A DNA stretch of 59,882 nt from Thermoanaerobaculia bacterium. Its GTDB lineage: Bacteria > Acidobacteriota > Thermoanaerobaculia > Multivoradales > UBA5704. The position numbers and the translations under genes are program-made. The stretch covers positions 1 through 59,882 of the forward strand of contig DATANP010000366.1 of assembly GCA_036266195.1 (NCBI GenBank). The letters are read 5' to 3'. A model generated the notes under the pieces. That model made no database searches. It was given only the letters and a program-made list of their open reading frames with translations, and had not been told where the DNA came from. This document shows positions 9,799 to 52,666 of this stretch, in pieces. The stretch's first letter is position 1; each line of letters opens with the position of its first letter.

Positions 9799-9831
9799 CG
9801 ACTCGTTGGACGCGTCAACCGGAGCGTTGGA

Positions 9832-10827
9832 TCAGGCTCCTTCCTTCTTCTCCGGAGCCGGAGGCGGAGGCCACTTGTCCACCCGGTTCTCCACCGGCGG
9901 CAGGCTGCGCAGGTAGTCGTAGATCGCGCCGAGGTCCTCGTCCGTCATGCCGGAGTAGGACCACCAGGGCATGCCGGTGTTGTGGCCGTCCTTGACCTTC
10001 GGGGCGGTCGAGGGGTCGGAGAAACCGCGGAAGGTGCCGATGAACTCGGCCTTGGTGCGGTTGCCGAGGCCGGTCTCGTGCGAGGTCAGGTTGGCGCTCA
10101 CCACCCTGCCCCACTGGCCGACCAGCGGATGACCGCCCGAGAACTCCTTGCCCGCAATGTACTGGTGCTTCTGGTCCACGGGCGAGTGGCAGAACTTGCA
10201 GATACCGATGTAGGTCAGGTACTGGCCGTACTGCACCGGATCCGAGCGGTTGGGCTCGGCCACAGGGCCGTCCAGCGGCTTCGGGACCTCCCGCAGAAAA
10301 TACTTGAGTGGAAAGTTCAGATGGGTCCTGGGGGCCTCGTAGCGCACGGCCGGCATGCTCCGCAGGTAGGCCACGATGGACTTCGCGTCCTCGTCGGACA
10401 TCTTGCTGTATTCCTCGTAGGGCATGAGCGGGAAGAGCGCGTTGCCGTCGCGATCGACCCCTTCGCGCATGGCGCGCAGGATCTCGCCGTCGGTCCAGTC
10501 GCCGATGCCGGTCTCCTTGTCCGGAGTGATGTTCGGGCTGCAGATCGCTCCCGGAATGCCCTTGCCCTGGAGGCAGTCGCCGCCGGCTCCGGGCGGGCCC
10601 TGCGGCGGTCCGCCGTAGCGGGTCCAGTCGGGCTTGGCGTGGCAGGCGAAGCAGGCGGCCACGTGCCTGGCCAGGTACTCGCCGCGCTGCACGCGCGCGG
10701 GCGTGATCTCGACGGTCTCGGTCGAGGGCGGGCGTTGCGCCGGCCTCGATTTCACCTTGTAGAACAGGGCTCCGCCGCCGACCACAAGCACGACGAGCAC
10801 CAGGAGTACGACAAGAGCTTTCTTCAT
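9832..10827 (-). CDS. Membrane-anchored di-haem c-type cytochrome
   Basis: N-terminal anchor MKKALVVLLVLVVLVVGGG. Two CxxCH motifs (AACFACH, GICKFCH), each followed by a NITPD/NLT...TG(I/L)G-type segment as in cytochrome subunits of membrane dehydrogenases. Its ATG overlaps the NRPS-A stop (caATGAag). Confidence 0.9.
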   Translation of the reverse strand: MKKALVVLLVLVVLVVGGGALFYKVKSRPAQRPPSTETVEITPARVQRGEYLARHVAACFACHAKPDWTRYGGPPQGPPGAGGDCLQGKGIPGAICSPNITPDKETGIGDWTDGEILRAMREGVDRDGNALFPLMPYEEYSKMSDEDAKSIVAYLRSMPAVRYEAPRTHLNFPLKYFLREVPKPLDGPVAEPNRSDPVQYGQYLTYIGICKFCHSPVDQKHQYIAGKEFSGGHPLVGQWGRVVSANLTSHETGLGNRTKAEFIGTFRGFSDPSTAPKVKDGHNTGMPWWSYSGMTDEDLGAIYDYLRSLPPVENRVDKWPPPPAPEKKEGA

Positions 10828-13800
10828 TGAGATTCGTCCCTCCGGGAGAGGTACCGCTCCAACTCACGGGCCAGGCCTCCGACATGGGGCTCGGCCAGGA
10901 TTGTAAGGTGCTGGCCGGGTACGGGCACAACTTCGACAGGGCTCTGCACGACGCGGCCCCAGCCCAGGTCCGGCTCGCTCAGAGGACCCTCGGAGACCGG
11001 CGGCATGTCGGCGGCGCGGATCAGGGTCAGGCCGCCGGGGTACGGCCGGGGCTCGTAGGCACCGGCCGCGTTGGCGTTGGCCTTGTAGACGCGCAGGATG
11101 CGGGCGAGTTGCTCGACCCCGGCGCCGGGCGGCAGGAAGTCGGCGCCGCGCAGGCGCTCGGCGAAGACTTCGAGCTGAGCCTCCATGTCCAGGCTCTCCA
11201 GGTCCGCGCGGGTCAGCCCAAGGCTCTTGCCCCAGAGGCTCTCGACGTAGGCGGCCATGTCTAGGAGGAAGTCGATGTCGGTCTGGAATCCCGCGGCCTC
11301 GGCCGTGAGGTCCGGGACGCTGTCGAGGATGGCGAGGAGCGCCACCTCCTCTCCCTGCTCGCGGAGCTGGCGGGCCATTTCGAAGGCCACGACGCCGCCG
11401 AGCGACCAGCCGCCGAGATGGTAGGGACCCTGCGGCTGCTGCCGGCGCATCTCTTCGACGTAGTGCGCGGCCATGTCCTCGATGCGCGTGAGCGGCGGCT
11501 CGGCACCGGCCAGGCCCTGCGACTGGAAGCCGAAGAACGGCTGGTCCGGACCCAGGTGGCGCGCCAGCGCGGCGAAGCAGAGCACGTCGCCGCCCGCGGG
11601 GTGGACGCAGAAGAGCGGCGGACGCGAGCCGGACGGCTGGATCGGGACGAGCGAGGTGGAGGCCTCTTCGGACTCTCCGGCGCGCAGGCGGGCCGCCATC
11701 TCTTCGACGGTGCCACCCTGGAAGAGGATGGAGAGCGGCAACTCGTGGCCGAAGCGCTGCTGGACCTGGGCCATGAGCTTCACGGCGAGCAGCGAGTGGC
11801 CGCCGGCCTCGAAGAAGTTGTCGCGGACTCCCACGCGCGGGACGCCCAGGACCTCCTGCCAGATGCGGACGAGCTCCAGCTCGACGACGTCCCTGGGCTC
11901 GACGAAATCGGCGCCTGCATGGTCGTCCGCGGACGGGTCGAGGCGCAGCAGGGCGTCGCGGTCGATCTTGTCGGTCGGGGTGCGGGGCAGCGCCTCCAGG
12001 AAGGTGAAGCTGCCGGGCACCATGTAGTCGGGCAGGCGGTCGCGCAGGTGCTCGCGCAGGTCCTGGGCCGCGAGCGGCGGCAGGTCCTCGTCGCCCTCCA
12101 GGACCGGCCCGGGCACGACGAAGGCGGCGAGGCGCTTGCCGCCGCGGCCGTCGTCACGGACCAGGACGGCGTACTCGCGCAGGCGCGGATGAGTGCCGAG
12201 CGCGGCCTCGATCTCGCCCAGCTCGATGCGCAGGCCGCGGATCTTGATCTGGCGGTCGATCCGGCCGAGGAATTCGAGCTCGCCGTCGGCGTTCCAGCGC
12301 GCCAGATCGCCGGTGCGGTACAGGCGCTCGCCCGGGTGTTCGGCGAGGGCGAACGGATCGGGCGCGAAGCGCTCCGCGGTCAGCTCCGGCCGGTTCAGGT
12401 ATCCGCGCGCCAGGCCGGCGCCGCCGATCCAGAGCGCGCCGGGCACTCCGACGGGCGCGGGCTGGCCCTGGAAGTCGAGCACGTAGGCGCGCGAGCCGCC
12501 GACCGGGCGGCCGATGGGCGGCTCCTTGCGGTAGACACCCGAGCAGACGTGGACCGTGGTGTAGATGGTGGTCTCGGTCGGGCCGTAGCAGTTGAGGAGC
12601 CGGCGCAGGATCGAATCCGGCGGCGACCAGCGGCTCGCCAACTCGCCCGGGCAGCTCTCTCCGCCGACGCTCACCACCTCCAGTGTGGGCATGCCCTCCT
12701 GGGGGAGCGAGTTGAGGACGGACGGCGTGAGCACCGCGGTGGTGATGCCGTCGCGCCGGATCATGGCGGCCAGGGCGTCGCCCGAGAGCAGGGTCTCCTG
12801 GCGGGCCACGCAGAGGGCGGCCCCGGTGGACAGAGCGGTCCAGGTCTCCAGGACCGAGGCGTCGAAGCTGAACGAGACGGACTGGAGCAGGCGGCTCTCC
12901 GGCCCCACTCCGAAATGCTCGACCGCGCGGCGGATGAGGTTCACCGCCGAGCCGTGGCGCACGAGGACGCCGTTCGGACGCCCGGTCGAGCCCGAGGTAT
13001 AGATGACGTAGGCGAGATGGTCCGGCCCGACGCCGGCGCCCGCGGAGATCCGCGGCTCGATCTCCCAGTCGTCGAGGTCGAGGCAGAGGGTTTCGGCGTC
13101 GTGGTCCGGCAGCGCGTCGAGCAGGCGGCTCTCGATGATCAGGACGCGGGCGCGGGAGTCTTCCAGCATCCAGGAGAGGCGCTCGCGGGGGTGCGACGGA
13201 TCGAGCGGAATGTAGGCGCCGCCGGCCTTGAATACCCCGAGAACCGCCATGATCCTCTCGATGCCGCGCTCGAGGGAGATCCCGACAAGTCCCTCGGGAC
13301 CGACCCCGAGACTACGCAGCCGGCCCGCGAGGCGCTCCGACCGCTCGTCCAGCTCGCCATAGGTCATCGTCCGGTCGTCGAAGATCACGGCCGGAGCCTC
13401 GGGCCGGCGCTTCGCCTGCTCCTCGAACAGGTGGTGCAGGCAGCAATCAGCGATGTCGAAATCCGAGGTCGCGGTGTCGTTCCACTGGACGAGGATCTGG
13501 TCGCGCTCGGAGGCGGTGAGGAGCGGCAGCTCCGAGAGCGGCCGGTCCGGGTTCCCGGCCGCGGCGCCGAGGAGGATCGCCATGTGGTCGGACAGGCGGT
13601 CGATGGTGGACGGATCGAAAAGGTCGGCGCTGTACTCCCAGGAGCCGTCGAGCGTGTCGGAGCGGCCGATCTCCGGCTCGGTGATGCCGAGGAGGAGATC
13701 GACCTTGGCCGAGGCGCCCTCGGCGCCAAGCGGCGAGAGGACGAGGCCGGGCAGCTCCAGCGGCTGGGCCGGGGTGTTGAAGGTGAAAACCACCTGGTAG

Positions 13801-16800
13801 ACGGGGTTGCGCGCCAGGCTGCGCTCGATCTTGAGCTCGTCCACGAGGCGCTCGAACGGCAGGTCCTGATGGGCGTAGGCGCCGAGGGCCGCGGTGCGCA
13901 CGCGGCCGAGCAGTTCGCGGAAGGTGATCCCCTGCGGCGCCGGGGAACGGAATTCGCCGCGCAGGACCAGGGCGTTGACGAAGAAGCCGATCAGGCCTTC
14001 GACCTCGCTCCGCGTGCGGTTCGCCACGGGCGAGCCGACGAGAATGTCCTCCTGGCCGGTGTAGCGATGGAGGATCGCCTGGAGGCCGGCGAGGAGGACC
14101 ATGAAGAGCGTGGCGCCGCTATCTCGGGCCACCTCACGGAGTGCCTGCGGCACGGGCGCGGGCAGGCGCATGGGCCGGTGGCCGCCGCGGAACGACTGCA
14201 CGGGCGGTCGCGGATGGTCCGTGGGCAGGTCGAGGACGGTGCGAACGCCCTGCAGGCGCTCGCGCCAGTAGGCGATCTGGGCCTCCAGCACCTCGCCGCG
14301 CAGCCACTGGCGCTGCCAGACCGCGAAGTCGGCGTACTGGACCGGCAACGGCGGGAGCGCCGAGGGGCGGCCGTCGAGGAAGGCGCGGTAGAGTGCGGCC
14401 ATCTCGGCGGTGAGCACGCCCACGGACCAGCCGTCGCTCACGATGTGGTGCATGTTGAGGAGCATGGCCCAGTCCTCGTCGCCGTTGCGGACGAGCAGGG
14501 CGCGCAGGAGCGGACCGCGGTGGAGGTCGAACGGCTGGGCGGCCTCGGAGCTCAGCGCGAGCCGGGCCTCGGCCTCGCGGCGGTCTCCGGGCAGGGCGGT
14601 GAGGTCCACCACGGGCACCGGCACGTGAAGCTCCGGCGCGACGGCCTGGAACGGCCGGCCCTCGTGCTGGTCGAAGGTGGTGCGCAGGGCCTCGTGGCGG
14701 CGGACGATCTCGTTGAGCGCGGCTGCGAGCGCGGCCACGTCGAGCCGGCCGGTGGCGCGCAGGGCCGACGGCACGTTGTAGAGCACGCCCCCGGGCTCCA
14801 GGCGGTCGAGGAACCACAGGCGCTCCTGGGCGAAGGAGAGCGGCGGCCACGGGCCGCGCTCCTCGGCGGAGAGCGGCAGGATGGGAGGCGCGGCCACTCC
14901 TCCAGCGTCGCGGAGCGCAGCCTCGACGCGCCGCGCGAGCGCGTCCAGCCGCGGCGTCTGGAACACGGCGCGCAGCGGCAGCTCGACGCCGAAGGCCTCG
15001 CGCAGGCGCGAGACGAGTCGGGTGGCGAGCAGCGAATGGCCGCCGAGGTCGAAGAAGTCGTCGGAGGGGCGGATGCGTTCGATCCCGAGCAGCTCGCTCC
15101 AGATGCCGGCCAGCATCTCCTCAGTCGACGTGAGGTGGACGGCCCCCGTCTCTTCCGCCTGGGGCTCGGGCTTGATGCGGGCGAGCGCCCTGCGGTCCAC
15201 CTTGCCGCTGGCGTTGAGCGGCATGGCATCCAGGGCTATGAAGGCGGAGGGCACCATGTAGGGCGGCAGGCGCGCGGCCAGGGTCTCGCGTAGTGCGTGA
15301 AGGGCCGGCAGGCTCTGGCCCTCGCGCGGCGTGAGGTAGGCGACGAGGTGCTTCTCACCACCCTCCTGATCGACCAGCACGACCGCCTCGCGGATCTCGG
15401 GCAGGGCGACGAGCGCGGCCTCGATCTCGCCCAGCTCGATGCGGAAGCCGCGAATTTTGATTTGATGGTCAATGCGGCCGAGGAACTCGACGTCGCCGTC
15501 CGGCAGCCAGCGCACGAGGTCGCCGGTGCGGTAGAGGCGCTCTCCGGGAGTACCGAAGGGGTTGGGCACGAAGGACACTGCGGTCAGCTCGGGGCGGTGG
15601 CGGTAGCCCCGGGCCAGGCCCGCGCCGGCGATGCACAGCTCCCCCGGCACGCCCACCGGCACGGGCCGGAAGGCGCGATCGAGGACGAAGACCCGGATGT
15701 TCTCGATGGACCGGCCGATGGTCGGCGGCCGGTCGCCCTCGCGGAGCACGACCGCGGCGTTGGTCACCACGGTACTCTCGGTGGGGCCGTAGTGGTTGAC
15801 CAGATCGAAGGGGTGCTCGCGGCGCGGCCGGCGCAGGAGGCGGTCGCCGCCTGTGAGGATCGTGCGCAGGACCAGCCGCTCGGGCACGGGCTCGGTCAGA
15901 ACCGCCTCGACGAGCGGCGTGGGCAGGAAGGTGATGGTGATCCCCTCCTCCGCCATCCAGGCCCAGAGGTCCGGCGGCGAGGCCACGATGTCGGCCGGCG
16001 GCACGTGCAGCGAGGCTCCCGAAGCGAGCGCCGGCCAGATCTCCCAGACCGACGCGTCGAAGCCGGAACCGGCCAGGAGCGCGCAGCGGTCGTCCGGCGT
16101 CAGGCCGTAGGCGCGCCGGTGCCAGGAGACCAGATTCGAGAGGCCCGAATGCCGAAGCTCTGTGCCCTTCGGGTTGCCGGTCGAGCCTGACGTATAAATC
16201 ACATAAGCAAGGTTTTCAGGCTCCACGGCGACCTGGATCCGATCTCCCTCTTCAAGATCGAGCGCGTCGAGACACAGCGCCGGAACGCCCGCGGGCTCCA
16301 ACTCGCCCGCCAGCTCCTGGCTGGTGAGGACGGCAAGGGCGCCCGAGTCGCGCAGCGTGTAGAGCAGGCGCTCGGCCGGGTTCGAAGGATCGAGCGGCAG
16401 GTAGGCGCCGCCCGCCTTAAGCACGGCGAGGACCGCGAGGACCTGCGTGGGCGAGCGCTCCAGGCAGACGGCCACGACCTTTTCAGGTCCGGCTCCCATC
16501 TCCCGGAGCCGGGCTGCCAAACGGTCCGCGCCGCGATCCAGCTCGCCGTAGCTGAGCCGGCTGTCGCCCTGGACCACAGCCAGGGCATCGGGGTTGCGCG
16601 CCGCCTGCTGCTCGATCAGGCGATGGACGCGGACGTCCTCGACTGGCAGCGAGACGCCGGCCCAATCCTCCAGGAGCTGGCGCCGCTCCTCTTCGGCGAG
16701 CAGCGGGAGGTCCTCCAGGCTGCGGTCGGGATCGGCGAGCGCGCCTTCGAGGAGGATGGCGTAGTGCCGCAGGAGCCGCTCGGCGGTCGCGGGCTCGAAG

Positions 16801-19800
16801 AGGTCGATGTCGAACTGGATGCCCGCGACGATCTCGCCCGCCGGCCTCTCCTCCAGGGCCACGCTCAGCTCGAACTTGGCCGCGGTGACCTCGAAATCGA
16901 TGGGCGCCAGGGTGAGCCCCGGCAGCTCCAGGGCTCCCGAGGGGCCGGCCGCGGTCTGCACCGAGAACGAGACCTGGAAGAGCGGTGTGCGCACGAGGTC
17001 GCGGCCCTCGCCCATCTCATCCACCAGCTTTTCAAACGGCAGGTCCTGGTGCGCGAAGGCGCCGAGCACGCTCTCGCGGGTGCGCGCCAACAGGCCGCGG
17101 AAGCTCGGCGGACCCGAGAGCCGGCCGCGCAGCACGAGGGTGTTCACGAAGAAGCCGATCAGCGCCTCGGTCTCCGGCAGCGGCCGGTCGGCCACGGGCG
17201 AGCCCACGAGGAGGTCGTCCTGGCCCGTGTAGCGGCCGAGGAGCGCCTGGAAGGCGGCGAGGAGGAGCATGAACGAGGTCGCGCCCTCCTTCTGCCGCAG
17301 CGCGGTCACGGCGTTGCCAATCCCCGCCGGGAAGCTCAGCCAGGCGCTGGCGCCGCGGTTGGTGGGCGCGGGCGGACGCGGACGGTCGGTCGGCAGCTCC
17401 AGCTTCGTGGGCGCGCCGTCCAGCTCGCGCTTCCACCAGTCGAGCCGGCCCGCGAGCCCCTCGCCCTGGAGCCGCTCGCGCTGCCACTCGGCATAGTCGG
17501 CGTACTGTACCGGCAGGTCCGGCAAAGGCGACGGGCGGCCCTGGGAGAAGGCGTTGTAGAGCGCGCCCAGCTCGCGCACCAGGACGTTGAAGGAGAGCCC
17601 GTCGCAGACGATGTGATGAAAGGTCAGAATGAGCGCCCAGGAGTCCTCCGCCAGGTGGGCCAGCACACCCCGGACCACGGGCCCGTGGGCGAGGTCGAAG
17701 GAGGTCCGGTCGTGCTGCTCGACCAGGTCGCGGACCGCGGCGAGTTGCCGGTCCCCGGGCACGTGCCGCAGGTCGGCCTGCCGGAGCTTCAGGGGCGACG
17801 GAGGGTGGACGACCTGTTTCGGGTTTCCGTCGATCTCGGGAAACACGGTGCGCAGCACCTCGTTGCGGCGCACGACCTCGTCCAGGCTGCGCTGGAAGGC
17901 GTCCAGGTCCAGCCGGCCGTCGAGGCGCAGGGCGATGGTGACGTTGTAGAGGCTCGTGCCGGGCTGGAGACGGTCGAGGAACCAGAGGCGCTCCTGCCCG
18001 AACGAGAGACGGGCCGGGCCGGCGCTCACGCGCCTGGGGATCGTGAGGCGCGGCGCCTCGTCCGCGGCCTGGAGCTTCGCGGATTTCGCCTTCATGAGCT
18101 TCGCCAGGGCGGCGCGCTTCTGGTCGGAGAGGCCGGACCGGCGCTCGGACAGCTCGCCCTCGCGGGCCGCGACCCGGTTGCGCAGCTCCTCCTCTTTCCG
18201 CTGGGACTCGTCCTCCGCGGAGGCCGCTGCGGCGGACACCTCGGCGGGCTCCCCGCCAAGGACCTGCCGGCGCTCGGGTTCGGGAATCCGCGGCAGGTCC
18301 GAGACCTGGCGGTCGGGATCGTCCATGACTGCCTCCAGGATCACACGGAAGTGCTCCGACCAGCGCTCGATCGTGGATGGGTCGAAGAGATCGGCACTGT
18401 ACTGGAACCCGCCGAGCAACTCGCCCCGGAACTCCCCGAGGCCGAGCGTGACGTCGAACAGCGAGACGTCGGAGTCGCGGTCCAGCAGCGAGAGGGCGAG
18501 CCCGGGCAGGGCCGGCTCCTCCAGGGGCGCGTTGTGGAGGCCGAACATTACCTGGAAAAGCGGGTTGCGGTCCAGGCTGCGCGCCACCTGCAGGCTCTCC
18601 ACCAGCTTCTCGAACGGGAGGTCCTGGTGGACGTAGGCGCCCAGGGCCACGGTCCGGACACGCCTGACGAGATCGCGGAACGTGCCCGGCCCCTCCCGGC
18701 TGCGCAGCACGAGCGTGTTGATGAAGCAGCCGATGAGCGGCTCGGTCTCGGGCCGGCCGCGACCCGCCACGGGCGTGCCGACCAGCAGGTCGTCCTGCCC
18801 GCTCACCCGGTGCAGAACCGTCTCGAAGCAGGCGAGGAGGGTCATGAACAGGGTCGCGCCCAGCCGCCGGCTGAGCGCCTGGGCGCGCTCCAGAACCGCC
18901 GCCGGCAAGGTCAGCTCGCGCGTGGCGCCGCGGTGGCTCACCACGGCCGGCTGCGGCCGGTCGGTGGGCAGCTCGATCTTCTCCGGCGCGCCGGCCAGCG
19001 CCTCGCGCCACCAGGCGAGCAGGCGGTCCAGCGCCTCGCCCTGGAGCCATGCGCGCTGCCAGACCGCCACGTCGCCGTACTGCACGGGGAGCGGGGGCAG
19101 AACGGGCTCACGGCCATCGCCGGGGTCGACGATCCGGCCGTAGAGATCCGCCAACTCGCCGAGGAGCACGCTGGTGGACCAGCCGTCGCTCGCGATGTGA
19201 TGGACGGACAGGGTGAGGACCCAGGCCCGGTCGTCCAGCCGCAGGAGGCGGAAGCGCGTGACCCTCCCCTCCTCCAGCCGGTAGGGCAGGCCCTCCTCCT
19301 CCTTGGCGAGGCGCACGGCCTCGGCCTCGCGGAGGCTCTCGGGGAGACCGCGGAGATCGCTGACCGGGAGGGTCACGGCTGTCTCGGCCTGGACCCTCTG
19401 CACGGCGCGGCCGTTCTCCGTGGCGTAGGCCGTGCGCAGGACCTCGTGGCGGCGGACGATCTCCTGGAGCGCGGCGCGCAGGGCGGGCACGGAGAGCCGG
19501 CCGGTCAGACGCACGGCGAGCGAGATGTTGTACAGCGGGCTCGCCGGATCGAGCTGGTAGAGGAACCAGAGGCGCTCCTGGGCAAAGGAGAGCGGCAGGT
19601 CCTCGCCGGTCCGGGGGCGCGGCAGGATCGGCGGCAGGGCGATGCCTCTCTCGTCCGCCAGCAGGCTGTCCAGCGCGGCGGCGAGCCCGGCCACGGTCGG
19701 CGCCTCGAAGACCGTGCGGAGCGAGAGCTGCACGCCCAGCTCGTTCGAGAGGCGCGAGATCAGGCGCGTGGCGAGCAGCGAGTGGCCGCCAAGGTCGAAG

Positions 19801-22800
19801 AAGTCGTCGTCCACGCCAATGCGGTCCCGCTTCAGCAGCTCGGCCAGGATGCCGGCCACCAGCTCCTCGGTCGGCGTGCGCGGCTCGATCAGGTCGCCGG
19901 GCCGCTCGTCCCGAAGAGCCGTCTGCGCCAAAACGCGGCGGTCCACCTTGCCGTTGGCGTTGAGGGGCAGCGCTTCCAGCCAGGCGAAGCCGGATGGGAC
20001 CATGTAGGCCGGCAGGCGCTTTTCGAGGAACGGCCGGAGGTCGGTCTCCGCCCCGACCAGGAACGCTACCAGGTGCTTGTCCGAGCCCTCGCCCTGGACG
20101 ACCACGGACGCCTCGGCCACCGCGGGGTGCTCGCAGAGCGTGGTCTCGATCTCCCCGGGCTCGATGCGGAAGCCGCGGATCTTCACCTGCTGGTCGATCC
20201 GGCCCAGGAATTCGATCTCGCCGGTGGGTCGGTACCTGGCGAGGTCACCGGTACGGTAGAGACGGCCTCCGGGCGGACCGAGCGGGTCGGGCACGAAGCG
20301 CTCGGCGGTGAGGTCCGGCCGGTTGAGATAACCCCGCGCCAGGCCGTCGCCGCCGATGCACAGCTCTCCCAAACCTCCGGCGGGCACGAGGCGCAGCCCG
20401 CGGTCGAGCAGGTAGACCCGGGTGTTCGAGATCGGACGGCCGATCGGCACCGCGGCGTCGGCTCCGGGCGGCGAGGTCATGAGATGGCCCGTCGTAAACG
20501 TGGTGCTCTCGGTGGGGCCGTAGCCGTTCATCAGGACCAGCCCGGGGTTCTCGCGCAGGACCCGGTCCACGTGCGGCGGCGAGAGCACGTCGCCACCGGC
20601 CATGAGGAACCGCAGCCCGCGAAAGCTGTCCGGACGGGCCTCGACGAGCTGGTGGAACAGCCCGGCCGTGAGCCACATGACAGTCACCTTCTCGCGCAGG
20701 AAGGCGTCGCCCAGCTCGTCGAGCGAGAGCGCGTGCGGCGGCGGCATGACGACGGTGCCGCCGATGAGCAAGGGGCCCCAAATCTCCAGCGTCGAGGCGT
20801 CGAAGGCCAGGGGCGCAAACTGCAGGACCACGTCTCCGGGCTGGAAGTCGGCGAACCAGTTCTCCTTGAGAAGGCGCGCCACGTTGCGGTGGGTCACCGC
20901 GACGCCCTTGGGCCGGCCCGTGGAGCCGGACGTGAACAGCACGAAGGCGAGGTTTTCGGAGTCCGGCCGCGGACCGTGGGACAGCCCGGGGCCGTCCTCC
21001 TCCATCGTCAGGATCGACGTTCCCTCCGGCAGCCGGCCTCGTAGGTCGCCGCGGGTCACGACCACGGGCGCGGTGTCTGCGATGACGAAGGCGATCCGGT
21101 CGGCGGGCAGGGAGGGATCGAGCGGCACGTAGGCGCCGCCCGCCTTGAGGGTGGCGAGCAAGGCCACGATCTGCTCCGGCGAGCGCTCCAGGAAGACGCA
21201 CACGAGACGATCCGGCCCGATCCCCGCGGACCGCAGCCGGCCGGCCAGGACCTCGGCCCGAGCGTCCAGCTCGGCGTAGGTCATGGAGCCCGAGGCGGAC
21301 CGCATCGCTTCGGCGTCCGGCGAGCGGCGGACCTGCTCCTCGAACATTTCATGGATCAGGGCGTAGCGCGGGTAGTCCGTGGCCGTGGCGTTCCACCCCG
21401 AGACGAGTTGCTCGCGCTCGGCCTCGCCGATCAGCGGGAGGTCGGCGATCGGCAGCTCCGGGCGCGCACACGCGCCGCGCAGCAGGTTGGCGAGCTGTCC
21501 GGCGAGGCGCTCCACGGTGGCGGCGTCGAACAGGTCGGTGGCGTACTCCAGGAAACCTGCCAATCCGGTCTCTTCCTCGAACAGCGCCAGGAACAGATCG
21601 AATGGCGTGGCGCCGGGGTGGCGCTCCTCCATCCGGACTTCGAGGCCGGGCAGCGAGAAGCGCGGCAGCGGCACCTGGATGGTGACCGCCGCCTGCGCGA
21701 GCGTATTGTGGCTCAGGCTGCGCTCGATGCGCAGCTCCTCGACCAGCTTGTCGAACGGCAGGTCCTGGTGCGTGTAGGCGCCGAGGGCCATGGACCGCGC
21801 CTGCTCCAGCAGCGCCTCGAACGGGATCTCTTCCGACGGCCGGCCGCGCAGGACGAGCGTGTTGGTGAAGAAGCCGATCAGCGGCTCGACCTCCGGCCGG
21901 AGCCGGTTCGCGATCGGCGTGCCGATCAGCATGTCCTCCTGCCCGGTATACCGATGGAGCAGGGCCTGGAACGCCGCGACGAGAGTCATGAACGGCGTGG
22001 CTCCGCGGCGCGCGCTCAGGTCGCGCAGCGGGCGGTCGAGATCGCGCGGCAGCTCCACGCGGATGCGGGTGCCGCGGAAGCTCTGGAGCTGCGGGCGCGG
22101 CCGGTCGAGGGGCAGCTCCAGAAGCTTCGGCACGCCGTCGAGGGTCTCCCGCCACCAGGCGACCTGCCGCTCCACCACGCCGCTTTCGAGCCACCCGCGA
22201 TGCCAGACCGAGAAGTCGGCGTACTGGATCGGCAGCTCCGGCAGCTCCTCGCCCCACCCCCGCAGATACAGGGCGACCAGCTCCCGGGCCATCACGTCCA
22301 TGGACCAGCCATCCCCTACGATGTGGTGGAGGTTGAGCAGCAGCACATGTTCGTCCGGCGCGAGGCGGACCAGCTCGTACCGGAACACGGGCCCATGCTC
22401 CAGGTCGAACGGCCGGCTGGCCTCATCCGCCGCATGACGTGCGAAGTCATCACGGGCCAGATCGATCCGGGTCAGGGGCGCGGGCTCGAACCGCAGCACG
22501 GTCTGGAGCGCGCCCTCGTCTGTCTGGCGAAAGACGGTGCGCAGTACCTCGTGGCGCCGCACGATCTCCTGGAGGGCCCGTTCCAGCGCGGCCTCGTCGA
22601 GATCGCCGTCGAAGCGCACCGCGTACGGCATGTGGTAGACGGCCTGGTTCTCCAGCATCTGGCTCAGGAACCAGAGCCGCTCCTGGGCATAGGACTGAGG
22701 AACCGGTCCAGTCCTCTCCAGACGGGGAATCGGCGGCAGGGCCGCGGACGGCTCGCCGGATTCGATGCGCGCCGCGAGCGCCTTGATGGTCGAAGCCTCG

Positions 22801-24581: not shown

Positions 24582-24688
24582 CTCTGCTCCTCCTGTTCAA
24601 GGGGTGGACACGCGGCCTGGCGGGTCAAGGCCCGCTCATGTAGTTTGGTGCCCGTCGCTTCCAAAACAGGGACGTCTAAGCATTTCCT

Positions 24689-40521
<15,833 letters not shown>

Positions 40522-40525
<4 letters not shown>

Positions 40526-43500
40526 AGGAGCTGCGCCAGCTCCTCCTCGCTCAGGCTGTCCACCTTGGCGATCATCAGCTCCTCGACCACGAGGGACAGC
40601 TCGGCCAGCGTCGGCGCCTCGAAGAGCGTGCGGAGCTTGAGGTCGATCTCGAACGTCTGCTGGATGCGCGACACGAGCTGCGTGGCGAGCAGCGAGTGGC
40701 CGCCCAGGTCGAAGAAGCTGTCGAACGCGCCGACCCGCGGCACGTTGAGGATCTCCTTCCACAGCTCGGCCAGCGCCTCCTCGATCTCGTTGCGCGGCTC
40801 GACGAAGCCCTCCTCGTCCTCGGCGCGGCCCCAGACCGGCGCGGGCAGCGCCCGGCGGTCCACCTTGCCGTTCGGCGTGAGCGGCATGGCGGCGAGCACC
40901 ACGAACGCGGCCGGCACCATGTAGTCGGGCAGACGCTCCTTCACGAATGACTTCAGGTCCGCGGTCTCCAGCGTCTGGCCTTGCTGCGGCACCGCGTAGG
41001 CCACGAGCCGCTTCTGGCCGTTCTCCTCCAGCGCCAGGACAACAGCCTGGTGGACGCCGGGATGCCGGCCGAGCACCGACTCGATCTCCCCGGGCTCGAT
41101 CCGGAAGCCGCGCACCTTCACCTGGAAGTCCACGCGGCCCAGGAACTCGATCTCGCCCGTGGACAGCCAGCGCGCCAGGTCGCCCGTGCGATACAGCCTC
41201 TGCCCTTCACCCTGGAAGGGGTCGGGCACAAACACCTGCGCCGTGCGCACCGCCTCGGCCAGGTAGCCGCGGCCGACTCCCAGGCCGCCCACGCACAGCT
41301 CGCCCGCCACGCCCGGCGGCAGCGCACGCAGCTCGCGGTCCACGATGTAGAGCTGCGTGTTCGCCACCGGCTTGCCGATCGGCGTGTGGACCACCTGTGG
41401 CTCCGGCGCCTGCCGGATCGGATGGTGCGCCACGTCGTCCGAGCACTCGGTCGGACCATAGGCGTTCATCAGCGGGATCGAGGGGTAGATCGCCAGCCAC
41501 CGCCGGCACAGCTCCGGCGGCAGGGCCTCGCCCGTGGGGATCATCCAGCGGAGCGTCTTCAGGGCCGGCAGATCCGGCACCTCCAGCATGGCCGCGAGGA
41601 CCGACGGCACGACCTCCAGGATCGTCAGGCCATCGCGCTCCACCGCCGCCAGGAGCGACGCGGGATCGTGCGCGACTTCATCCGGATAGATGTGGACCCG
41701 GCCGCCCACGGCCAGCGAGACCAGGAGCTGCCACACCGAGATGTCGAAGCTCTGCGAGGCGTTCTGGGCCACCGCGTCGGACGCGGTCAGGCCCAGGTCC
41801 TCCACCTTGGCGAGCAGGTGGTTCAGCATGCCGCGGTGATGGATCATCGCGCCCTTGGGCAGACCCGTGGAGCCCGACGTGTAGATCACGTACGCCAGGT
41901 TCTCCTGGCTGGACCGCACCGGCACGCCGTCTCCTTCCGAGAGGCTCTCCATCTCCAGGATCTCGACCTCCGGCACGTCGCCGTGGAGATCACCGGCCAT
42001 CAGCTTCGGGCCGAGGCCGTTGCCGGAGAGCAGCCAGCGCGCGCCGCTCTGCGCCAGCACCGCGAGGGCTCGCGCCGCCGGCTGGTTCGGATCGAGCGGC
42101 AGGTAGGCGCCGCCCGCCTGGAACACCGCCAGCACGCCGGTCAGGAAGTCGAGGCTGCGCTCCGCCAGGATCGCCACCAACGACTCCGGCCCGACGCCGT
42201 GGCCGGACAGCACCCGCGCCCAGCTCTTCGCCCGGTCGTCGAGCTCGCGGTAGGTCAGGCTCTTCCCCTGGCAGACAGCCGCCACCGCGTCCGGCGACTT
42301 CTCCACCTGGGCGGCGAAAAGGTCCACGAACGTGTCTGCCTCCGGCCTCGCCTGCGCGGTCTCGTTCCAGGCGGCGAGCACCTGGCGCTGCTCGCCGTCG
42401 CTCATCAGCGGCAGGTCCTGGATCGGCATGTCCGGGTTCGCCGCCACCGCCGCGTAGATGCGCTGGAGGTGGTCCACCATCCGGCGCGCGGTCACGCGGT
42501 CGAACAGGTCGGCGTTGTACTCCAGCCAGCCAACCGTGCCCTCCGGCCCTTCCGCCATCCACAGCGACAGGTCGAAGTTCGCGCGGTCGTTGCGCACGCC
42601 CGAGCTGCTGATCGTGAGCCCGGGAAGCTCCTCGTAGACCGCCGGGAAGTTGAGCAGATTGAGCATCGCCTGCACCACCGGGCTTCTGGACATGTCGCGC
42701 TCGAAGCGGATCTCCTCCAGCAGCTTCTCGAACGGGATGTCCTGGTGCGCGTAGGCGTCGAGCGTCGTGGTCTTCACCCGCCGCAGCAGCTCGCGGACCG
42801 TGGGATTGCCCGACAGGTCCGTGCGCAGCGCGAGGTTGTTGACGAAGAAGCCGATCAGCCCTTCGACCTCGGCCCGCGTGCGGTTCGCGATCAGCGCGCC
42901 GACGCCGAAATCGTCCTGCTGGCTGTAGCGCTGGAGCAGCACCTTGTAGCCGGTCAGGAGGACCATGAACAGCGACGCGCCCTCGCCGTGCGTGAGCGCC
43001 TCCAGGCCCCGGCTCACGGCCGCGGGGAGCTGGAAGTCCTCGTACTCGCCGCGGAACGTCTGCACCGGCGGACGCGGACGGTCGCCGCGGACGTCGAGGA
43101 ACGGGATGCCCGCGAGCTTGCCGTTCCAGAATCCGATCTCCCGCGCCAGCACGTCGCCGGTGAAGTGGTGCCGCTGCCAGTCCGCGAAGTCGAGATATTG
43201 GATCGGCAGCTCGGCCTGCGGCGAAGGCGTGCCCGTCACCGCCTCGCGGTAGGCATGGGTGAGGTCCACCTGGAGCACGCCCATGGACCAGCCGTCGGTC
43301 ACGATGTGGTGGACGGCCAGGATGAGCAGGTGCTCCTCCGGAGCCAGCCGCAGCAGGACCGCCGACAGGAGCGGACCGGTCGCCAGGTTGAACGAGGTCG
43401 ACGTGTGGTGGAGGATCAGCCGCCGCTCTTCGGCCAGGCGCTCCTCCGCCGCCATGGGCGACAGGTCCACGAACGGCATCTCGATCGTCAGCTCGGGCAG

Positions 43501-45942
43501 GATCTCCTGGTGCACCTTGCCGTCCACCGAGGGGAATCGGGTGCGCAGCGTCTCGTGGCGGCGCACCACGGCGTTGAGCGCCCGGTGCAGCGCGTCCACG
43601 TCGAGCTTCCCCTTGAGGCCGATCGCGGCCGGCACGTTGAAGGCCGGCGTGCCCGGATCAAACTGGTCGAGGAACCAGAGCCGCTGCTGCGCGAACGAGA
43701 GCGGGAACGGTCCGAAGGTGTCGCGCAGGGGACTGACCGGGATCTTCGCCGTCTGGTCCTGCCGCCCCTCCTCCTGCATGTAGCGGATGGCGTCCGCCAG
43801 CTCGGCCGCGGTCGGGAACGAGAACAGGTGCTGGAGCGGGAAGTCGATCCCGAGATCCTGGCGCACGCGCGAGAGGATCTGGGTGGCGAGCAGCGAGTGG
43901 CCGCCGAGCTGGAAAAAGTTGTCGTGGACGCCGACCGGCTCCACGCCCAGGATCTCCTGCCAGATGCGGCAGACCGCGGTCTCGCGCTCGTCGCGCGGCG
44001 GCTCGTAGGGGTTGAACAGGTTCGGCCGCGGGTGGAGCGTCTGCACCGAGCCCGCCGCCATGGCGAGCACCGGGCTGAGCGCCGCGCTCGCCGGGACCGC
44101 CTCCTCGGGCGTCACCAGCACGTGCTCGTGGCTGGCCAGGGCCGGGTCGGGCAGCACCACGCCGGGCATGTCGATCCAGTAGCGCCGGCGCTCGAACGGA
44201 TAGGTCGGCAGCGAGACCCGCCGCCGGGTTTCGCCGTCATAGAGCGGCTGCCAGTCCAGCCCCTCCGCCCACGACAGCCAGCGCCGGCCGGTCTCGCGCA
44301 GATCCTCTCCTTGGACTGCGGACGCCAGAAGCGGCCCGGCCCCGGAGTCCAGGTGGCCGGGTACGGCCGTGAACACCCGCGCCGGATCGAGCGACTCCAG
44401 CGCCTCGATCGCCTCCTCGCGCGTGCGGCAGGCCACCAGCCGGCGGTGCTCGAACGAGCGCCGGCCCACGTGGAGCGTGTACTCGACGTCCGCCAGATCC
44501 AGATCCGGATGCCTCTCCAGGAATCCGGCAAGGCCGCGGGTCGCCTCCTCGAGGGCCGCGTCGCTCTTGGCCGAGAGCGCGAGCAGGTGCCACTCGCGGC
44601 GCGAGGGGGTCGTCGGGACCTCGGGCGCCTCCTCCATCACGATGTGCGCGTTCGTGCCGCCGAAACCGAACGAGCTCACGCCCGCGCGCCGCGGCGAACC
44701 GGGGGCCGGCTCCCAGGGGCGCAGCTTCGTGTTGATGAAGATCGGGCTCGACGCGAAGTCGATCTCCGGGTTCGGGTCCACGAAGTGAAGGCTGGGCGGG
44801 ATCACCTGGTGCTTGAGCGACAGGATCGTCTTGATGATGCCGCCGATGCCCGCCGCCACGTCCAGGTGGCCGATGTTCGTCTTGACCGAGCCGAGCGGGA
44901 TGAACTGCTTGCGGTCGGTCTCGGCGCGGAACGCCTTGGTGAGCGCCTGGACCTCGATCGGATCGCCGAGGCGCGTGCCGGTGCCGTGGGCCTCGATGTA
45001 GGAGGCCGACTCCATCTCCACGCCGGCCGCGCCCCAGGCCTCGGAGATGACCTCGGCCTGGCCGTCCACGGAAGGAGCCGTGTAGCCGACCTTGAGCGCG
45101 CCGTCGTTGTTCACGGCCGAGCCCAGGATGATGGCGTGGACGTTGTCGCCGTCGCGCAGCGCATCCTCGGCGCGCTTGAGCACCACCACGCCCGCGCCGC
45201 CGCCGAAGAGAATGCCCTCGGCCCCGGCGTCGAACGCCTTGCACTTGCCGGACTTGGCGAACACCGAGCCTTCGGCGGCCTTGTAGCCGGTGAGCAGGTG
45301 GACGTTGATCGACACGCCGCCCGCGAGCGCCAGGTCGCACTCGCCGTTGAGCAGGCTCTGGCAGGCGGTGTGGACCGCCACGGCGGAGGTCGAGCAGGCG
45401 CTCTGGACCGTGAAGCTGGGGCCCTTCAGGTTGAACTTGTACGACACCCGGGTGGCGAGCGAGTCGCCGGCGTTGCCCACCAGGAGCTGGAGCGGGTCCA
45501 TGGATGCCGTGAGCGCCTTGTTGGGCAGCAGGTTGAAGAGCAGGTAGGTGCTCGTGGTCTGGCCGGCGAACACGCCGGTCATGCCGGTGAGGCTGTCGGG
45601 GTCGTAGCCGGCGTCTTCGAGCGCCTCCCAGCAGACCTCCAGGAACCAGCGCTGCTGGGGGTCGAGGATCTCGGCCTCGCGGTGGTTGATGCCGAAGAAG
45701 TGGGCATCGAACTTGTCGAGGTCCGCGGGCTGGGCCGAGGCCTTGATGTAGGTCGGGTCCGCGAGCAGGGCGGGGCTTACGCCGAAGGCGCGCAGCTCCT
45801 CGTCCGTGAAGAACCGGACCGAATCCACGCCGTCGCGGAGGTTGGCCCAGAACTCCTCCAGGTTGCGGGCACCGGGGAACCGGCCCACCATGCCGACGAC
45901 AGCAATCGCGTTTTCGAGCGCGTTTTCCAGGTCTCTGCCCAT
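40522..45942 (-). CDS. Hybrid PKS-NRPS (1806 aa): KS-(AT-less linker)-T-C-A-T
   Basis: KS with QSACSTS (Cys codon 45394-45396), EAHGTGT and NIGHL. KS-AT-type linker ...[14 protein letters not shown]...[14 protein letters not shown], with no AT GHSxG motif. T Ser codons at 43894 and 40693. HHIVTDGWS at 43306. A3 core near 41851-41900 and [12 protein letters not shown]. The C-terminal tail is ...[20 protein letters not shown] lies 9 nt upstream of ATG45942. Confidence 0.95.
44625..45905 (-). other. Ketosynthase (KS) domain
   Basis: [13 protein letters not shown] ... [14 protein letters not shown]. The catalytic Cys/His/His all appear present. Boundaries are approximate. Confidence 0.9.
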
Positions 45943-46239: not shown

Positions 46240-46761
46240 TCACTGGGAGCGCCGGCGTCGGGCCGCTGGTTGCCGACCGTCCGCAATCCCTGGCGGGTCG
46301 TCCGCAACTCTCTGCCGGCCATCGGCAACGCCCTGCCGGTGATCGGCCGACATCTGCCGAGGATCGGCAACTCTCTGCCGGTCATCCGCAATCACCTGCG
46401 GACGATCGGCAAACGTCTGCTGACTGTCGGCAACCCTCTGCCAGTCATCCGCGACGATCTGCGGGCGGTTGGCCAACGCCTGCGGATCGTCGGCCACGCT
46501 CTGCCGAACATCCGCAACCGACTGCCGACCCTCGGCAGACGCTCGCGGATCGATCAGGGAACAGATCCTCGACCTCCACCTGAAGGCCGGGCAGCATACC
46601 GAGGTCACCGTCTCCCCGACTCCCCCACTGCAGAACTCGACGTAGCGATCCTCGCTCAAGGTATGGATCACGACCCTCCGCGCCTTGGGATCGACAATCC
46701 AGTGCCAGATCTGTCCGTCATGGTCCTCGGGAGTTGGCAGGGTGTAGGCCGGTTCGGACAT
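46240..46761 (-). CDS. Hypothetical ORF: Uma2-family (DUF820) C-terminal fragment fused to ~13 heptad repeats; possibly a gene remnant
   Basis: ATG46761 follows GAGAGG. IWHWIVDPKARRVVIHTLSEDRYVEF..GETVTS resembles the EYWIVDP...V.VY.L..G.Y end of Uma2 endonucleases, but the N-terminal two-thirds of that fold is absent. The rest is (V/I)ADxRQx repeats encoded by the 21-bp array. Confidence 0.35.
   Translation of the reverse strand: MSEPAYTLPTPEDHDGQIWHWIVDPKARRVVIHTLSEDRYVEFCSGGVGETVTSVCCPAFRWRSRICSLIDPRASAEGRQSVADVRQSVADDPQALANRPQIVADDWQRVADSQQTFADRPQVIADDRQRVADPRQMSADHRQGVADGRQRVADDPPGIADGRQPAARRRRSQ
46257..46550. repeat. 21-bp tandem array, ~13-14 units (consensus about atcggcaacNctctgccgNNc)
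   Basis: Units read directly: cgtccgcaactctctgccggc / catcggcaacgccctgccggt / gatcggccgacatctgccgag / gatcggcaactctctgccggt ... The array is contiguous with no spacers. It is open in frame on both strands. Confidence 0.9.
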
Positions 46762-47131
46762 GGAGACCTCTCGTTCCGAATCGAGGGTAACGCCCCAGGC
46801 GGGAAGCGTCAAGCCACGTCCCGCGTCGCCGGAGGCCGTAACATGCGACGCCCTACTGCGCAACCCCGGGCTGGGGAGAGACATCCTGGCGACGTTCAAG
46901 CTTGTCGCAAACTCCTCCCGATTTGACGCAAATCCCGGCTCCGCAGAGGCCGCAACCCGGTTTTCCGCCGCCGCGCCCGGGATTTTTGACGCGAATCACC
47001 CGTGTTCTGACGCGACAATTCAGGGGGCAGACCCTGCCCATCCAATTGTTGCGACAAAAATCACGGGTTTGGGGACAGGTTTCGGGCCTTCGCCCTCGGA
47101 CAGGCAGGCCTACAGCGAAGCGCAGGAATTC

Positions 47132-48088
47132 TCAGAGGCCGAGATCGTCCAGCGAGGACGCCGCGAAGAGTCTCCTGCCAATCTTCTTGAGCTCTTCGGG
47201 ATCCCGGATGCTCTCGATCCGATGGCGAAGCGTATGTGGCAAGGGGCCAAATCGTTCTTCGATCTGAGAGAGAAGAAAGTCCTGGCGGCCCTGCTGGCGG
47301 CCTTGCTGGAGGCCCTCCTCCAGGCCTTCCTTCTTCCACTCCTGGGTCCATTCCATGACTCGCTCTGCGAGCATTGTGTGGATCTCCTCCAGACTCCCGG
47401 TCTCCGCCAGGGAGACTCCTGGAAACTTTGCCGGTATCAAAACCTGCGTGAGCCAGCTCCGTACCGACCTCCGCAGACTGTCATCAAGCTCCGGAACAGC
47501 CGTCAGACGGCCCACCTCCTGCTTCAAGGCCTCCAGATCGCGGCTCTTCTCCAGTCGGAACAGGGCCGCGGCCAGGTTCCGCTCGGACTCGAGCTCCATC
47601 TCCGGAATCTGCGACTCGTCCAGCAGAGCGTAGCGCAGATGGGGACGATAGGCTTCGAGCCCGCCGGGTACCGCCTCGATCAGGTCGGCTACGTCCGAGG
47701 CGGCCTGCCAGGGCCGCTTCCCATTGTACAGGACCAGGATGAAGACCGGCGGCAGTTTGCCCGAGGGGGTAAAGGCCTTCTGTTTGAGCAGATCCTGGTA
47801 GAGAAGGACCTGGTATTCCAACACCCGCAGCGCCATGTGCGGGTCCACCGAGGATTGGAACTCCAGCAGGATGTAGACGTACAGAAAACGGTCCCGCCAT
47901 CGGACCTTCCACAGCATGTCGCTCTCGCGGGCCCTGAGGCTTTCGTGGACGTACGAGCCCTCCACACGCTCCAGCGTCTGGAAGTCGACCTCCTTGACCC
48001 AATCCTCCCTGACAAAGCCGCGCAGCAGGTCCGCCACTACCGCGGCATGGGAGAAGAGAAGCTTGTAGCCGGCATCGTGTCGCGCCAT
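47132..48088 (-). CDS. Rpn-family recombination-promoting nuclease / putative transposase (PD-(D/E)xK), with DUF4351-like C-terminus
   Basis: HDAGYKLLFSH...ADLL N-terminus, SDMLWKV...YVYILLEFQS (D...ExQ core), and a C-terminal EGLEEGLQQGRQQGRQDFLLSQIEERFGPLP segment typical of the family. GC is lower than in the flanking NRPS genes. Confidence 0.8.
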   Translation of the reverse strand: MARHDAGYKLLFSHAAVVADLLRGFVREDWVKEVDFQTLERVEGSYVHESLRARESDMLWKVRWRDRFLYVYILLEFQSSVDPHMALRVLEYQVLLYQDLLKQKAFTPSGKLPPVFILVLYNGKRPWQAASDVADLIEAVPGGLEAYRPHLRYALLDESQIPEMELESERNLAAALFRLEKSRDLEALKQEVGRLTAVPELDDSLRRSVRSWLTQVLIPAKFPGVSLAETGSLEEIHTMLAERVMEWTQEWKKEGLEEGLQQGRQQGRQDFLLSQIEERFGPLPHTLRHRIESIRDPEELKKIGRRLFAASSLDDLGL

Positions 48089-52607: not shown

Positions 52608-52666
52608 GTCCCCCCTCTCCCGGCGGGGGGTGGACGGGAGATGGGAGAGGGGACAGGGGGTGAGGT
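52501..52666. repeat. 166-bp nested palindromic GC-rich element (MITE/REP-like) inserted in an A domain
   Basis: Outer arms are acctcaccccctgtccccctctcccgtctcccacccgcc (52501-) and ggcggggggtggacgggagatgggagaggggacagggggtgaggt (-52666). Inner arms are ccgggagagggggaac and gtcccccctctcccgg. Four GGGAGAGGGG motifs occur in alternating orientation. Confidence 0.85.

Follow-up and report, generated by a model that had tools for sequence, protein, structure and literature searches.

The window analysed here, a 59,882-nucleotide stretch of Thermoanaerobaculia bacterium DNA (contig DATANP010000366.1, positions 1 to 59,882), represents nearly all of the JGI metagenome contig Ga0400322_000001. Its minus strand carries the three synthetase genes H, B and A, which encode a nonribosomal peptide synthetase (NRPS) in which two condensation (C) domains seem to be misplaced. 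Domain layouts were derived from Pfam, motif scans and profile hidden Markov models (HMMs) built on the window's own domains. Gene H (40522-45942; 1806 amino acids) encodes a ketosynthase (KS; residues 11-440), a thiolation domain (T0; 656-719), a C domain (734-1189), an adenylation (A) domain (1209-1700) and a second thiolation domain (T1; approximately 1723-1790), as assigned by Pfam, motifs and the A-domain code. Gene B (24689-40525; 5278 amino acids) encodes A-T-(C-A-T)4-C-tail. It begins with the ATG at 40525, not at the start in the open reading frame (ORF) list, 40762, in agreement with the public gene call, and this ATG overlaps the stop codon of H (ATGA). Its N-terminal A-T (38711-40525), which has no C domain upstream, is read as a loading module, and its A-domain codes are, in order, Val-like, Val-like, Ala, DIFHFGLIIK and DIFHFGLIIK. 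The protein closes with a terminal C domain (residues 4777-5228; 24842-26197; HHVASDGWS) and a 50-residue tail (24692-24841), a two-helix element that ends in RRSALSDQKRAALQKLLQRKAK at the stop codon. Gene A (10824-24581; 4585 amino acids) encodes NRPS-A, with the layout A-T-C-A-T-Cpre-linker-Cpost-A-T-C-A-T-thioesterase (TE). Together the three proteins hold 10 C, 10 A, 11 T, one KS and one TE domain, and the count in a preliminary description of this DNA (10 C, 10 A, KS, T0, 10 aminoacyl-T and TE) proved correct by Pfam, motifs and HMMs. The signatures of a type I modular NRPS are present throughout: GGHSL in 11 of 11 T domains, HHxxxDG in all 10 C domains and GWSLG in the TE. The A, T, C and TE core motifs are all intact, and no disabling mutations were found in H, B or A.

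Two junctions depart from canonical order. Between H and B (40522-40525) a T domain meets an A-T module with no C domain between them, confirming the earlier observation of such a gap at 40.5 kb. Within NRPS-A, two intact C domains stand 68 amino acids apart upstream of one A-T. This double C spans 16671-19634, so that the earlier placement of a C-linker-C at 17.6-19.2 kb was approximately right. It consists of Cpre (residues 1650-2108; 18258-19634; HHIASDGWS), a linker (residues 2109-2176; 18054-18257), defined by sequence, alignment and an AlphaFold2 (AF2) model, and Cpost (residues 2177-2637; 16671-18053; HHIVCDGLS). Upstream of Cpre lies A(Ala)-T-C-A(Val)-T (19635-24581), whose last T is connected to Cpre by a normal T-C linker; downstream of Cpost lies A(Leu-like)-T-C-A(DALVSGCIYK)-T-TE (10824-16670).

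The Pfam Condensation model does not distinguish C from epimerization (E) domains. Cpre is of the LCL type, with motifs C1-C7 reading SFAQERLWF, RHEVLRT, HHIASDGWS, IGCFINT, HQDLPFE and RNPLFQ and with E-domain motifs absent; it shares 45-60% identity with the window's remaining C domains, and AF2 models it with a predicted local distance difference test (pLDDT) score of 85-95. A T-E-C or E-C reading of the tandem was ruled out by these motifs and identities. The closest match of Cpre is the terminal C domain of B, and vice versa, at 58-60% identity, compared with at most 54% for either against any other C domain in the window. The two share the private signatures IGCF(V/I)NT, LFD..LGLGEFRGE, QYGD and DLPRI.EPER. 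Cpost, in contrast, is 45-54% identical to all C domains in the window and 70-77% identical to the Cpost domains of two related clusters (L003 and L002, below); judged by identity and by its docking helix, it is closest to elongation C domains and not to the CI or starter type.

The linker is predicted to form a helix at residues 2116-2150, a turn, and a basic helix at 2153-2173 (DQKRAALAKLMKAKSAKLQAA). In the AF2 model of residues 1640-2650 both C domains are confident, and the linker helices lie on disordered tethers with pLDDT of 55-70. The tail of B (ending in AEALQARLSAREEEVAERRSALSDQKRAALQKLLQRKAK at the stop codon) is homologous to this linker (which includes RNRVAAREGELSERRSGLSDQKRAALAKLMKAKSAK) and also to a shorter linker between the leading C domains of a second, upstream NRPS in the window (48132-59863, described below). 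The window's tails share the motif LSDQKRAAL(A/Q)KL. When 1.84 billion representative proteins were searched with a profile of the three, just 65 matched at E <= 1e-3, with one of three layouts: A-T...C-tail, tail-C...TE or the fused form. Homologous tails form the ends of P0001-P0005, P0168, P0173, P0166 and P0221. A metagenome scan with an alignment of the tails gave pattern matches, none of which was confirmed by tblastn. Background frequencies of tails, docking motifs and A-domain codes were taken from generic C-domain loci recovered in a scan with the N-terminal 561 amino acids of the upstream NRPS; the tail HMM had no match in 142 other NRPS loci, a few of which hold tail-less T-C-C-A-T modules, and a PDB sequence search with the tail profile returned nothing significant. 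NRPS subunits that start with a C domain usually have, as their N-terminal extension, the second tail helix and the IPRRxxxGPAxLSF that follows it (for example P0009, P0042, P0047 and proteins in many loci). In L003, L154 and L157 the tail opens a separate protein that starts with a C domain, whereas it is embedded within the protein in the window, L002 and P0162, a representative protein of NRPS-A type. P0183, a more distant protein, retains the tandem C domains with no clear tail match.

Homologues at 78-92% protein identity are present in metagenome-assembled genomes of Holophagales and other Acidobacteriota. A comparison of fused and split junctions, which the preliminary description had suggested, showed each of the two departures again, fused or split, in no fewer than five related clusters. 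The T/A-T junction with overlapping stop and start codons is also found in L004, L005, L157 and L153, and the C-tail-C unit in L002, L003, L154 and L153; C-tail and tail-C are adjacent or fused in the window, L002, L003, L153, L154 and L159. On a 942-kb Holophagales contig (L002/L005), a homologue of H accompanies a three-module B-type protein ending in C-tail and an NRPS-A homologue with fused Cpre-tail-Cpost. An apparent split between the C domains of L002 at 18521/18527 is a frameshift inside Cpost in a long-read assembly, and the junction is fused. In another Holophagales genome (L003/L004), which also has a homologue of H, the B-type protein ends in C-tail and a stop codon, and the next protein starts directly, after its initial Met, with tail-Cpost-A-T-C-A-T-TE; each partner thus bears a homologous tail, and the whole A-T-C-A-T-Cpre unit is absent. 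The cytochrome c and DEAD-helicase genes downstream in L003 are syntenic with boundary genes of the window. In L154/L156 the parts are all separate: an H homologue, A-T-C-A-T-C-A-T-C-tail, A-T-(C-A-T)4-C-tail and, further along, tail-C-A-T-C-A-T-TE. In L153 a T-ending subunit overlaps the start of a single A-T-...-T-C-C-A-T-C-A-T-TE protein. In L157, a locus with synteny to the window, the upstream-NRPS orthologue P0167 starts with tail-Cpost, lacks Cpre and adjoins H, its only visible T-ending donor; a further 9794-residue TE-terminated NRPS lies upstream. Free-standing A-T-(C-A-T)n-C-tail proteins also occur (P0168, P0173 and P0221), the last with no other NRPS within 10 kb. A different tandem-C cluster, L159 (1-29654), has no KS and reads, with slashes between proteins, A-T-helix / helix-C-A(Dab)-T-C-A(Dab)-T-helix / TauD / C-A-T-C(HQxxxDG)-tail-C-A-T-C-T-helix / MacB / helix-C-A-T-..., where Dab denotes 2,4-diaminobutyrate.

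That the architecture is kept in independent assemblies at 78-92% protein identity implies purifying selection and shows that it did not arise from misassembly. The C domains that looked "misplaced" thus belong to a layout shared by a small family and are not an accident of the window contig. Across the relatives, H with its Dab-type code and the Leu-like and DALVSGCIYK modules are invariant (the codes of these terminal modules recur in L002 and L003), whereas B and the N-terminal part of NRPS-A vary in length and content. The HHxxxDGWS motif is kept by the C domain preceding the tail in nine of the ten family members examined. Tail-less T-C-C-A-T modules were observed in metagenome loci L107, L072 and L113; their second C domain reads HHI(I/V/A)ADR, not HHxxxDG, and they are of a different kind from the window's C-tail-C.

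The proteins that meet at these junctions carry recognizable docking motifs. H ends in a predicted acidic docking helix (40525-40572) that fits the pattern ..LS[DE][DE]E..LL and is the sole copy of this motif among the window's NRPS proteins. L004, L005 and L157 have exactly this helix, and L156 and the distant L153 very nearly so; the homologues in which it is invariant are 79-86% identical to H overall. Among 31 unrelated junctions between a T-ending and a C-starting protein, the upstream partner ends in an H-like acidic helix at 15, and at all 15 of these a basic LSxxKRALLxxL helix precedes the downstream C domain, as judged by eye. A crude ungapped BLOSUM score for the acidic and basic helices over the 31 junctions gave a Spearman correlation of 0.40 (p = 0.026). 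A regular-expression test of motif co-occurrence was dropped because its patterns were too crude to detect the tails of the window itself. Where such pairs are canonical, the docked T donates to the C domain that follows the LSxxKRALL helix. In the window, this helix lies directly upstream of Cpost but is internal to the protein, and a second copy is found at the C terminus of B. The position of the helix thus points to Cpost, rather than B, as the partner of H, and on the canonical reading of the helix pair, T1 of H would dock at the tail and donate to Cpost. The first 10 residues of B are variable and acidic like the tail of H, which makes them an unlikely docking partner for it. A conserved N-terminal peptide of NRPS-A (MAMVQEAAAG.., similar in L003) was considered as a docking site for the tail of B and dropped, since it is absent in L002. 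Taken together, the conserved C-tail-C unit and the docking motifs support the earlier suggestion of a non-canonical, docking-dependent topology.

The A domain of H has the specificity code DIWEITADDK, which is also found in L004, L005, L156, L157 and L008. It contains three acidic pocket residues and resembles DIWELTADDK, which we take to be a Dab code. In L159, the T-ending subunit before the tandem-C protein ends in two modules with DIWEITADDK. The corresponding subunit in L153 has DVGEAESIDK, which is similar to DVGEIGSIDK, presumably an ornithine (Orn) code; this A domain is 44% identical to that of H, no closer than an unrelated one. A Dab- or Orn-type code thus occurs beside a tandem-C protein in three lineages, compared to a background of 1 of 231 A domains in unrelated loci. 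A text search of the literature for these Stachelhaus strings returned no match, probably because the code tables lie outside the searched text.

Insight into the role of H comes from L008, a cluster at 9827-27301 of an Acidobacteriota metagenome-assembled genome. It encodes a single protein of 5.8 thousand amino acids, KS-T0-C-A-T-(C-A-T)4-TE, with a C domain 81% identical to that of H and the same A-domain code. L008 lacks a tandem C, a tail and an A-T-starting subunit, and has no NRPS upstream. Its KS is decayed, with GGGSRM in place of the Cys motif and with the His motifs lost by deletion; T0 and C are retained. Because this unit is N-terminal in a canonical NRPS, with nothing upstream and a decayed KS, the KS-T0-C-A(Dab) unit, as judged from these sequences, behaves as a chain-initiation unit that hands its product to a C domain. 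This decay also bears on how T0 comes to be acylated and on whether the KS of H elongates at all. The KS of H itself has an intact Cys/His/His triad (SACSTS, HGTGT and NIGHL) and a remnant of a type I KS-to-acyltransferase (AT) linker; only 13 residues precede its core, and an N-terminal docking region is absent. A comparison of C domains aimed at matching the Dab-to-Val C domain of L008 to one in the window was uninformative, with 48-58% identity to all, because L008 is a recombinant with upstream-NRPS-like modules. The preliminary description had allowed that a further trans-acting C, A-T or AT protein encoded nearby might restore canonical logic. No AT, fatty acyl-AMP ligase (FAAL), C or A-T gene that could act in trans was found beside H or NRPS-A in the window, L004, L005, L008 or L156; no extra trans-acting C, A-T or AT gene was found in the 10 kb that precede the L004 and L156 homologues of H, and none in approximately 2 kb downstream of the TE of the NRPS-A homologue in L003.

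We tentatively favor the interpretation, in our estimation close to an even chance, that the cluster is a convergent lipopeptide assembly line with two starts, in which the tandem C domains join both chains on one diamino acid. The main line would start at H, where an acyl group is built or held on KS-T0 and placed by the C domain of H on one amine of Dab bound to T1. The acidic C-terminal helix of H would then dock on the basic two-helix tail immediately upstream of Cpost, which would take acyl-Dab-S-T1 as donor and extend it with the Leu-like residue, after which one further residue would be added and the TE would release the product. In the second line, B would start an independent peptide on its own GrsA-like A-T (Val-Val-Ala-X-X); consistent with this, the N terminus of B resembles an ordinary initiation A-T. 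The terminal C domain of B would hand this chain to the N-terminal A-T of NRPS-A, across the split between C-tail and A-T, for addition of Ala and then Val. Cpre would take the resulting heptapeptide from its cis upstream T and attach it to the remaining free amine of Dab, which at this step might still be on the docked T1 of H or already on the next T, as in icosalide. Such a line would employ each of the 10 C, 10 A and 11 T domains once, would keep the cis T-C relations canonical, and would explain why H and the last two modules are invariant and the part made up of B and the N-terminal half of NRPS-A is variable.

Several considerations weigh against this interpretation. Three potential acyl donors meet at the junction (the C domain of H, the terminal C domain of B, and Cpre), versus two Dab amines, so B must feed NRPS-A in series across the C-tail/A-T split. 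A docking partner for this split was not found, and the N terminus of NRPS-A is not conserved in L002; B's own tail would be expected to bind H too. Both the gene order and the translational coupling of H and B would fit a co-linear line. In the fused L008 the Dab module precedes a Val-like one, which is also the order that H followed by B would give. The assignment of DIWEITADDK to Dab depends on its likeness to DIWELTADDK and on the three acidic pocket residues, and the KS of H has no AT in cis, with none found in the window or nearby. The C domain preceding the tail in P0197 (L159) has HQxxxDG and may be inactive. Finally, the AF2 model gives the linker a pLDDT of only 55-70, its domain packing is unreliable, and every pairing of a T with a C domain is drawn from sequence comparison.

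The gene order and coupling could instead reflect a strictly co-linear order from H through B to NRPS-A, which we consider unlikely. Here Cpre or the terminal C domain of B would act in trans with T1 of H as donor and the first A-T of B as acceptor, and the T upstream of Cpre would bypass Cpre and donate to Cpost, giving a linear acyl-Dab-Val-Val-Ala-X-X-Ala-Val-Leu-Y. The H stop and B start overlap in every relative, the 10 C domains equal the 10 condensations required, L008 shows the expected succession of Dab and a Val-like module, and a tail C-terminal to a C domain could recruit T1 of H. However, the T upstream of Cpre, with its normal linker, would compete as donor, and the chain would have to loop from B to the N-terminal half of NRPS-A and back to B. 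In L003 and L154 the terminal C domain of the B-type protein would have to act on the N terminus of its own or another large protein. The position of the LSxxKRALL helix before the receiving C domain points to Cpost rather than to B, whose acidic, variable N terminus is an unlikely partner, and the diamino acid on the docked subunit is left unexplained. This order, the first of two proposed in the preliminary description, is less parsimonious than the convergent one. The second had B, with its A-T as loading module, pass the chain to the first two modules of NRPS-A, with H acting in trans at the linker before the post-linker modules. That order is favored by the acidic helix of H, by the linker helix before Cpost, and by the N-terminal position of this helix in L003, L154 and L157. 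What is not supported is the idea of H as an internal insert, in which the peptide would pass to the KS of H, one malonyl unit would be added on T0, the C domain of H would condense the chain to Dab, and Cpost would continue, leaving Cpre as a non-catalytic scaffold with nine C domains used. The intact Cys-His-His triad, the KS-to-AT linker remnant, the predicted docking of H at the linker, and the HQxxxDG in the pre-tail C domain of one distant family member speak for such an insertion, but we regard it as decidedly improbable. In L008 the KS-T0-C-A(Dab) unit is an N-terminal chain-initiation unit with nothing upstream and a decayed KS, L159 has a tandem C without any KS, and an AT for malonate loading was not found in the regions searched. 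The 13 residues before the core of the H KS leave no N-terminal docking region. HHxxxDGWS is intact in Cpre, in B's last C domain and in homologues of both, and Cpre does not have the look of an inert scaffold. The equivalent pre-linker C domain of the upstream NRPS, cited earlier as carrying deletions, has small ones of 2 and 4 amino acids and an intact HHIVADGWS.

Alternatively, the locus might make two or more products, which we judge rather improbable. H with the C-terminal half of NRPS-A and H with the upstream NRPS would yield acyl-Dab-Leu-Y and acyl-Dab-X-Leu-Y, while the peptide from B and the N-terminal half of NRPS-A would be released onto a soluble amine or water, and the tandem would be a mere gene fusion. 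Terminal C domains that release their chains onto amines are established in other NRPS systems, A-T...C-tail units are also free-standing (P0221 has no NRPS neighbor), and the tail-C...TE protein of L157 adjoins H without Cpre. However, C-tail and tail-C are adjacent or fused in six clusters (the window, L002, L003, L153, L154 and L159), the two partners bear homologous tails, and separate products offer no explanation for the diamino acid on the docked subunit. We give almost no credence to the idea that the tandem is an ordinary E-C pair, or that the locus is decaying or misassembled and without functional meaning. The lumping of C and E by Pfam, the metagenomic origin of the contig and the four differences between window and public record over 25 kb would allow for such an explanation, but Cpre has LCL-type C1-C7 motifs and 45-60% identity to other C domains, the A, T, C and TE domains keep all their core motifs, and the architecture is conserved in independent assemblies.

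A broader proposal, which we find conceivable but lean against, is that C-(two-helix tail)-C is a general junction box that merges two independently initiated NRPS lines on both amines of a carrier-bound diamino acid delivered by a third, docked subunit. The A-T...C-tail proteins would then act as plug-in synthetases for side chains, which could be gained, lost or linked in series. If so, Holophagales would contain a family of branched or lariat lipopeptides. If the convergent reading is true, co-linear prediction tools give a linear decapeptide rather than a branched or lariat lipopeptide for this whole family of acidobacterial clusters. A natural, sequence-recognizable docking code, consisting of an acidic helix after a T domain and a basic two-helix tail before or after a C domain, would set a carrier domain between two C domains. 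Such parts are sought by NRPS engineers for splitting or merging assembly lines, and the fused, split and deleted variants (the window, L002, L003, L154 and L153) would form a natural series on the linkage that is needed.

The upstream NRPS (48132-59863, minus strand) is a second, paralogous, TE-terminated line with the layout Cpre'-tail'-Cpost'-A-T-C-A-T-C-A-T-TE. It begins at the contig end with Cpre' (residues 2-443), tail' (444-481) and Cpost' (482-936) at 57056-59860. Because the tail-Cpost protein of L157 lies next to H without another donor, H may, to judge from this arrangement, serve both TE-terminated lines of the locus. Compared with the public record L001 (25,421 bp, window 30522-55941), the window has three substitutions and one single-base gap, at approximately 52648 (CCCC versus CCCCC), which splits the upstream NRPS into ORFs at 52604-59863 and 48132-52607; in the public record it is one gene of 3904 amino acids. 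At 52500-52667, inside its second A domain between ..GRLVAYVV.. and the A10 motif, is a GC-rich palindromic element of approximately 168 nucleotides with perfect 19-nucleotide terminal inverted repeats (GACCTCACCCCCTGTCCCC and GGGGACAGGGGGTGAGGTC). In the public record the element is in frame and adds approximately 55 residues, and a similar PLSP..RERG-type sequence is present at the contig break of L004. The TE-proximal A domains of the two lines (10827-13400 and 48135-50700) have the A3 motif TSGSTGRPNG in place of ..PKG, and A10 motifs PTDKIDR or PTGKLDR; the TE-proximal code DALVSGCIYK is conserved in L003, L005, L006, L153 and L157. Between the two NRPS systems (46240-48088) are a gene with PF04754 (Transposase_31) and DUF4351 and a 190-residue ORF without hits, and relatives have other small genes at this position (for example, Uma2 in L157).

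The individual domains described here are ordinary, and tandem C domains have precedent. The combination of a two-helix docking element, its fused and split forms, and a docked lipo-initiation subunit bearing a diamino acid appears to be undescribed in the literature searched. The closest parallel is icosalide, the product of a dual-priming NRPS in Burkholderia gladioli, in which module 3 of IcoA is LCL-CI-A-T (PMC6553374). Of the two C domains in this module, the second primes a new unit on the T that follows, and the first then couples the chain from its cis upstream T to a nucleophile of that unit (PMC6553374, PMC10510592). NRPS-A is similar in having two intact C domains in tandem before one A-T, and the proposed mechanism is similar in its two initiation events and in the use of the first C domain, fed by its cis T, to join a chain to the unit of the second. 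However, the second C domain of the IcoA module is a CI domain that uses a 3-hydroxyacyl thioester of primary metabolism, whereas Cpost is an elongation-type C domain that follows a docking helix and would use as donor the acyl-Dab of a separate KS-T-C-A-T subunit. The nucleophile in IcoA is a hydroxyl, giving an ester, compared to a presumed amine in the window, and here a 68-residue two-helix linker parts the C domains, which may even sit on different proteins. The L008-type canonical lipopeptide NRPS has the same KS-T0-C-A(Dab code)-T start and continues with C-A-T modules and a TE.

Helical docking pairs, with an acidic helix after T and a basic helix before C, are matched by H and the tails in the manner of the 15 unrelated T/C junctions, and are distinct from TubC_N beta-hairpin docking, which was also present in the loci examined. 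Unlike in the usual pairs, the basic helix in the window is internal, between C domains, and a second copy follows the terminal C domain of B. Split modules and modules that act in trans are also known, such as SyrB1 (A-T), which works with SyrE in syringomycin synthesis, and the stand-alone A-T proteins of albicidin and ramoplanin (PMC8949500). As in those systems, a separate protein would supply an A-T to a C domain lacking its own. Those lines have a C-T or an inactive A domain and use shuttling enzymes, whereas the C domain in the window has no A or T after it and its trans partner brings its own lipo-initiation domains. Acylation of both amines of a diamino acid is known from the uridyl peptide antibiotics, in which beta-peptidation of N-methyl-2,3-diaminobutyrate occurs (PMC4858918), and amonabactin is branched at a Lys side chain (PMC8949500). 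As we propose here, different C domains acylate both amines of a carrier-bound diamino acid; in those pathways this is done by dissociated single-domain or single-module proteins, whereas in the window it would be done by tandem C domains within a multimodular line.

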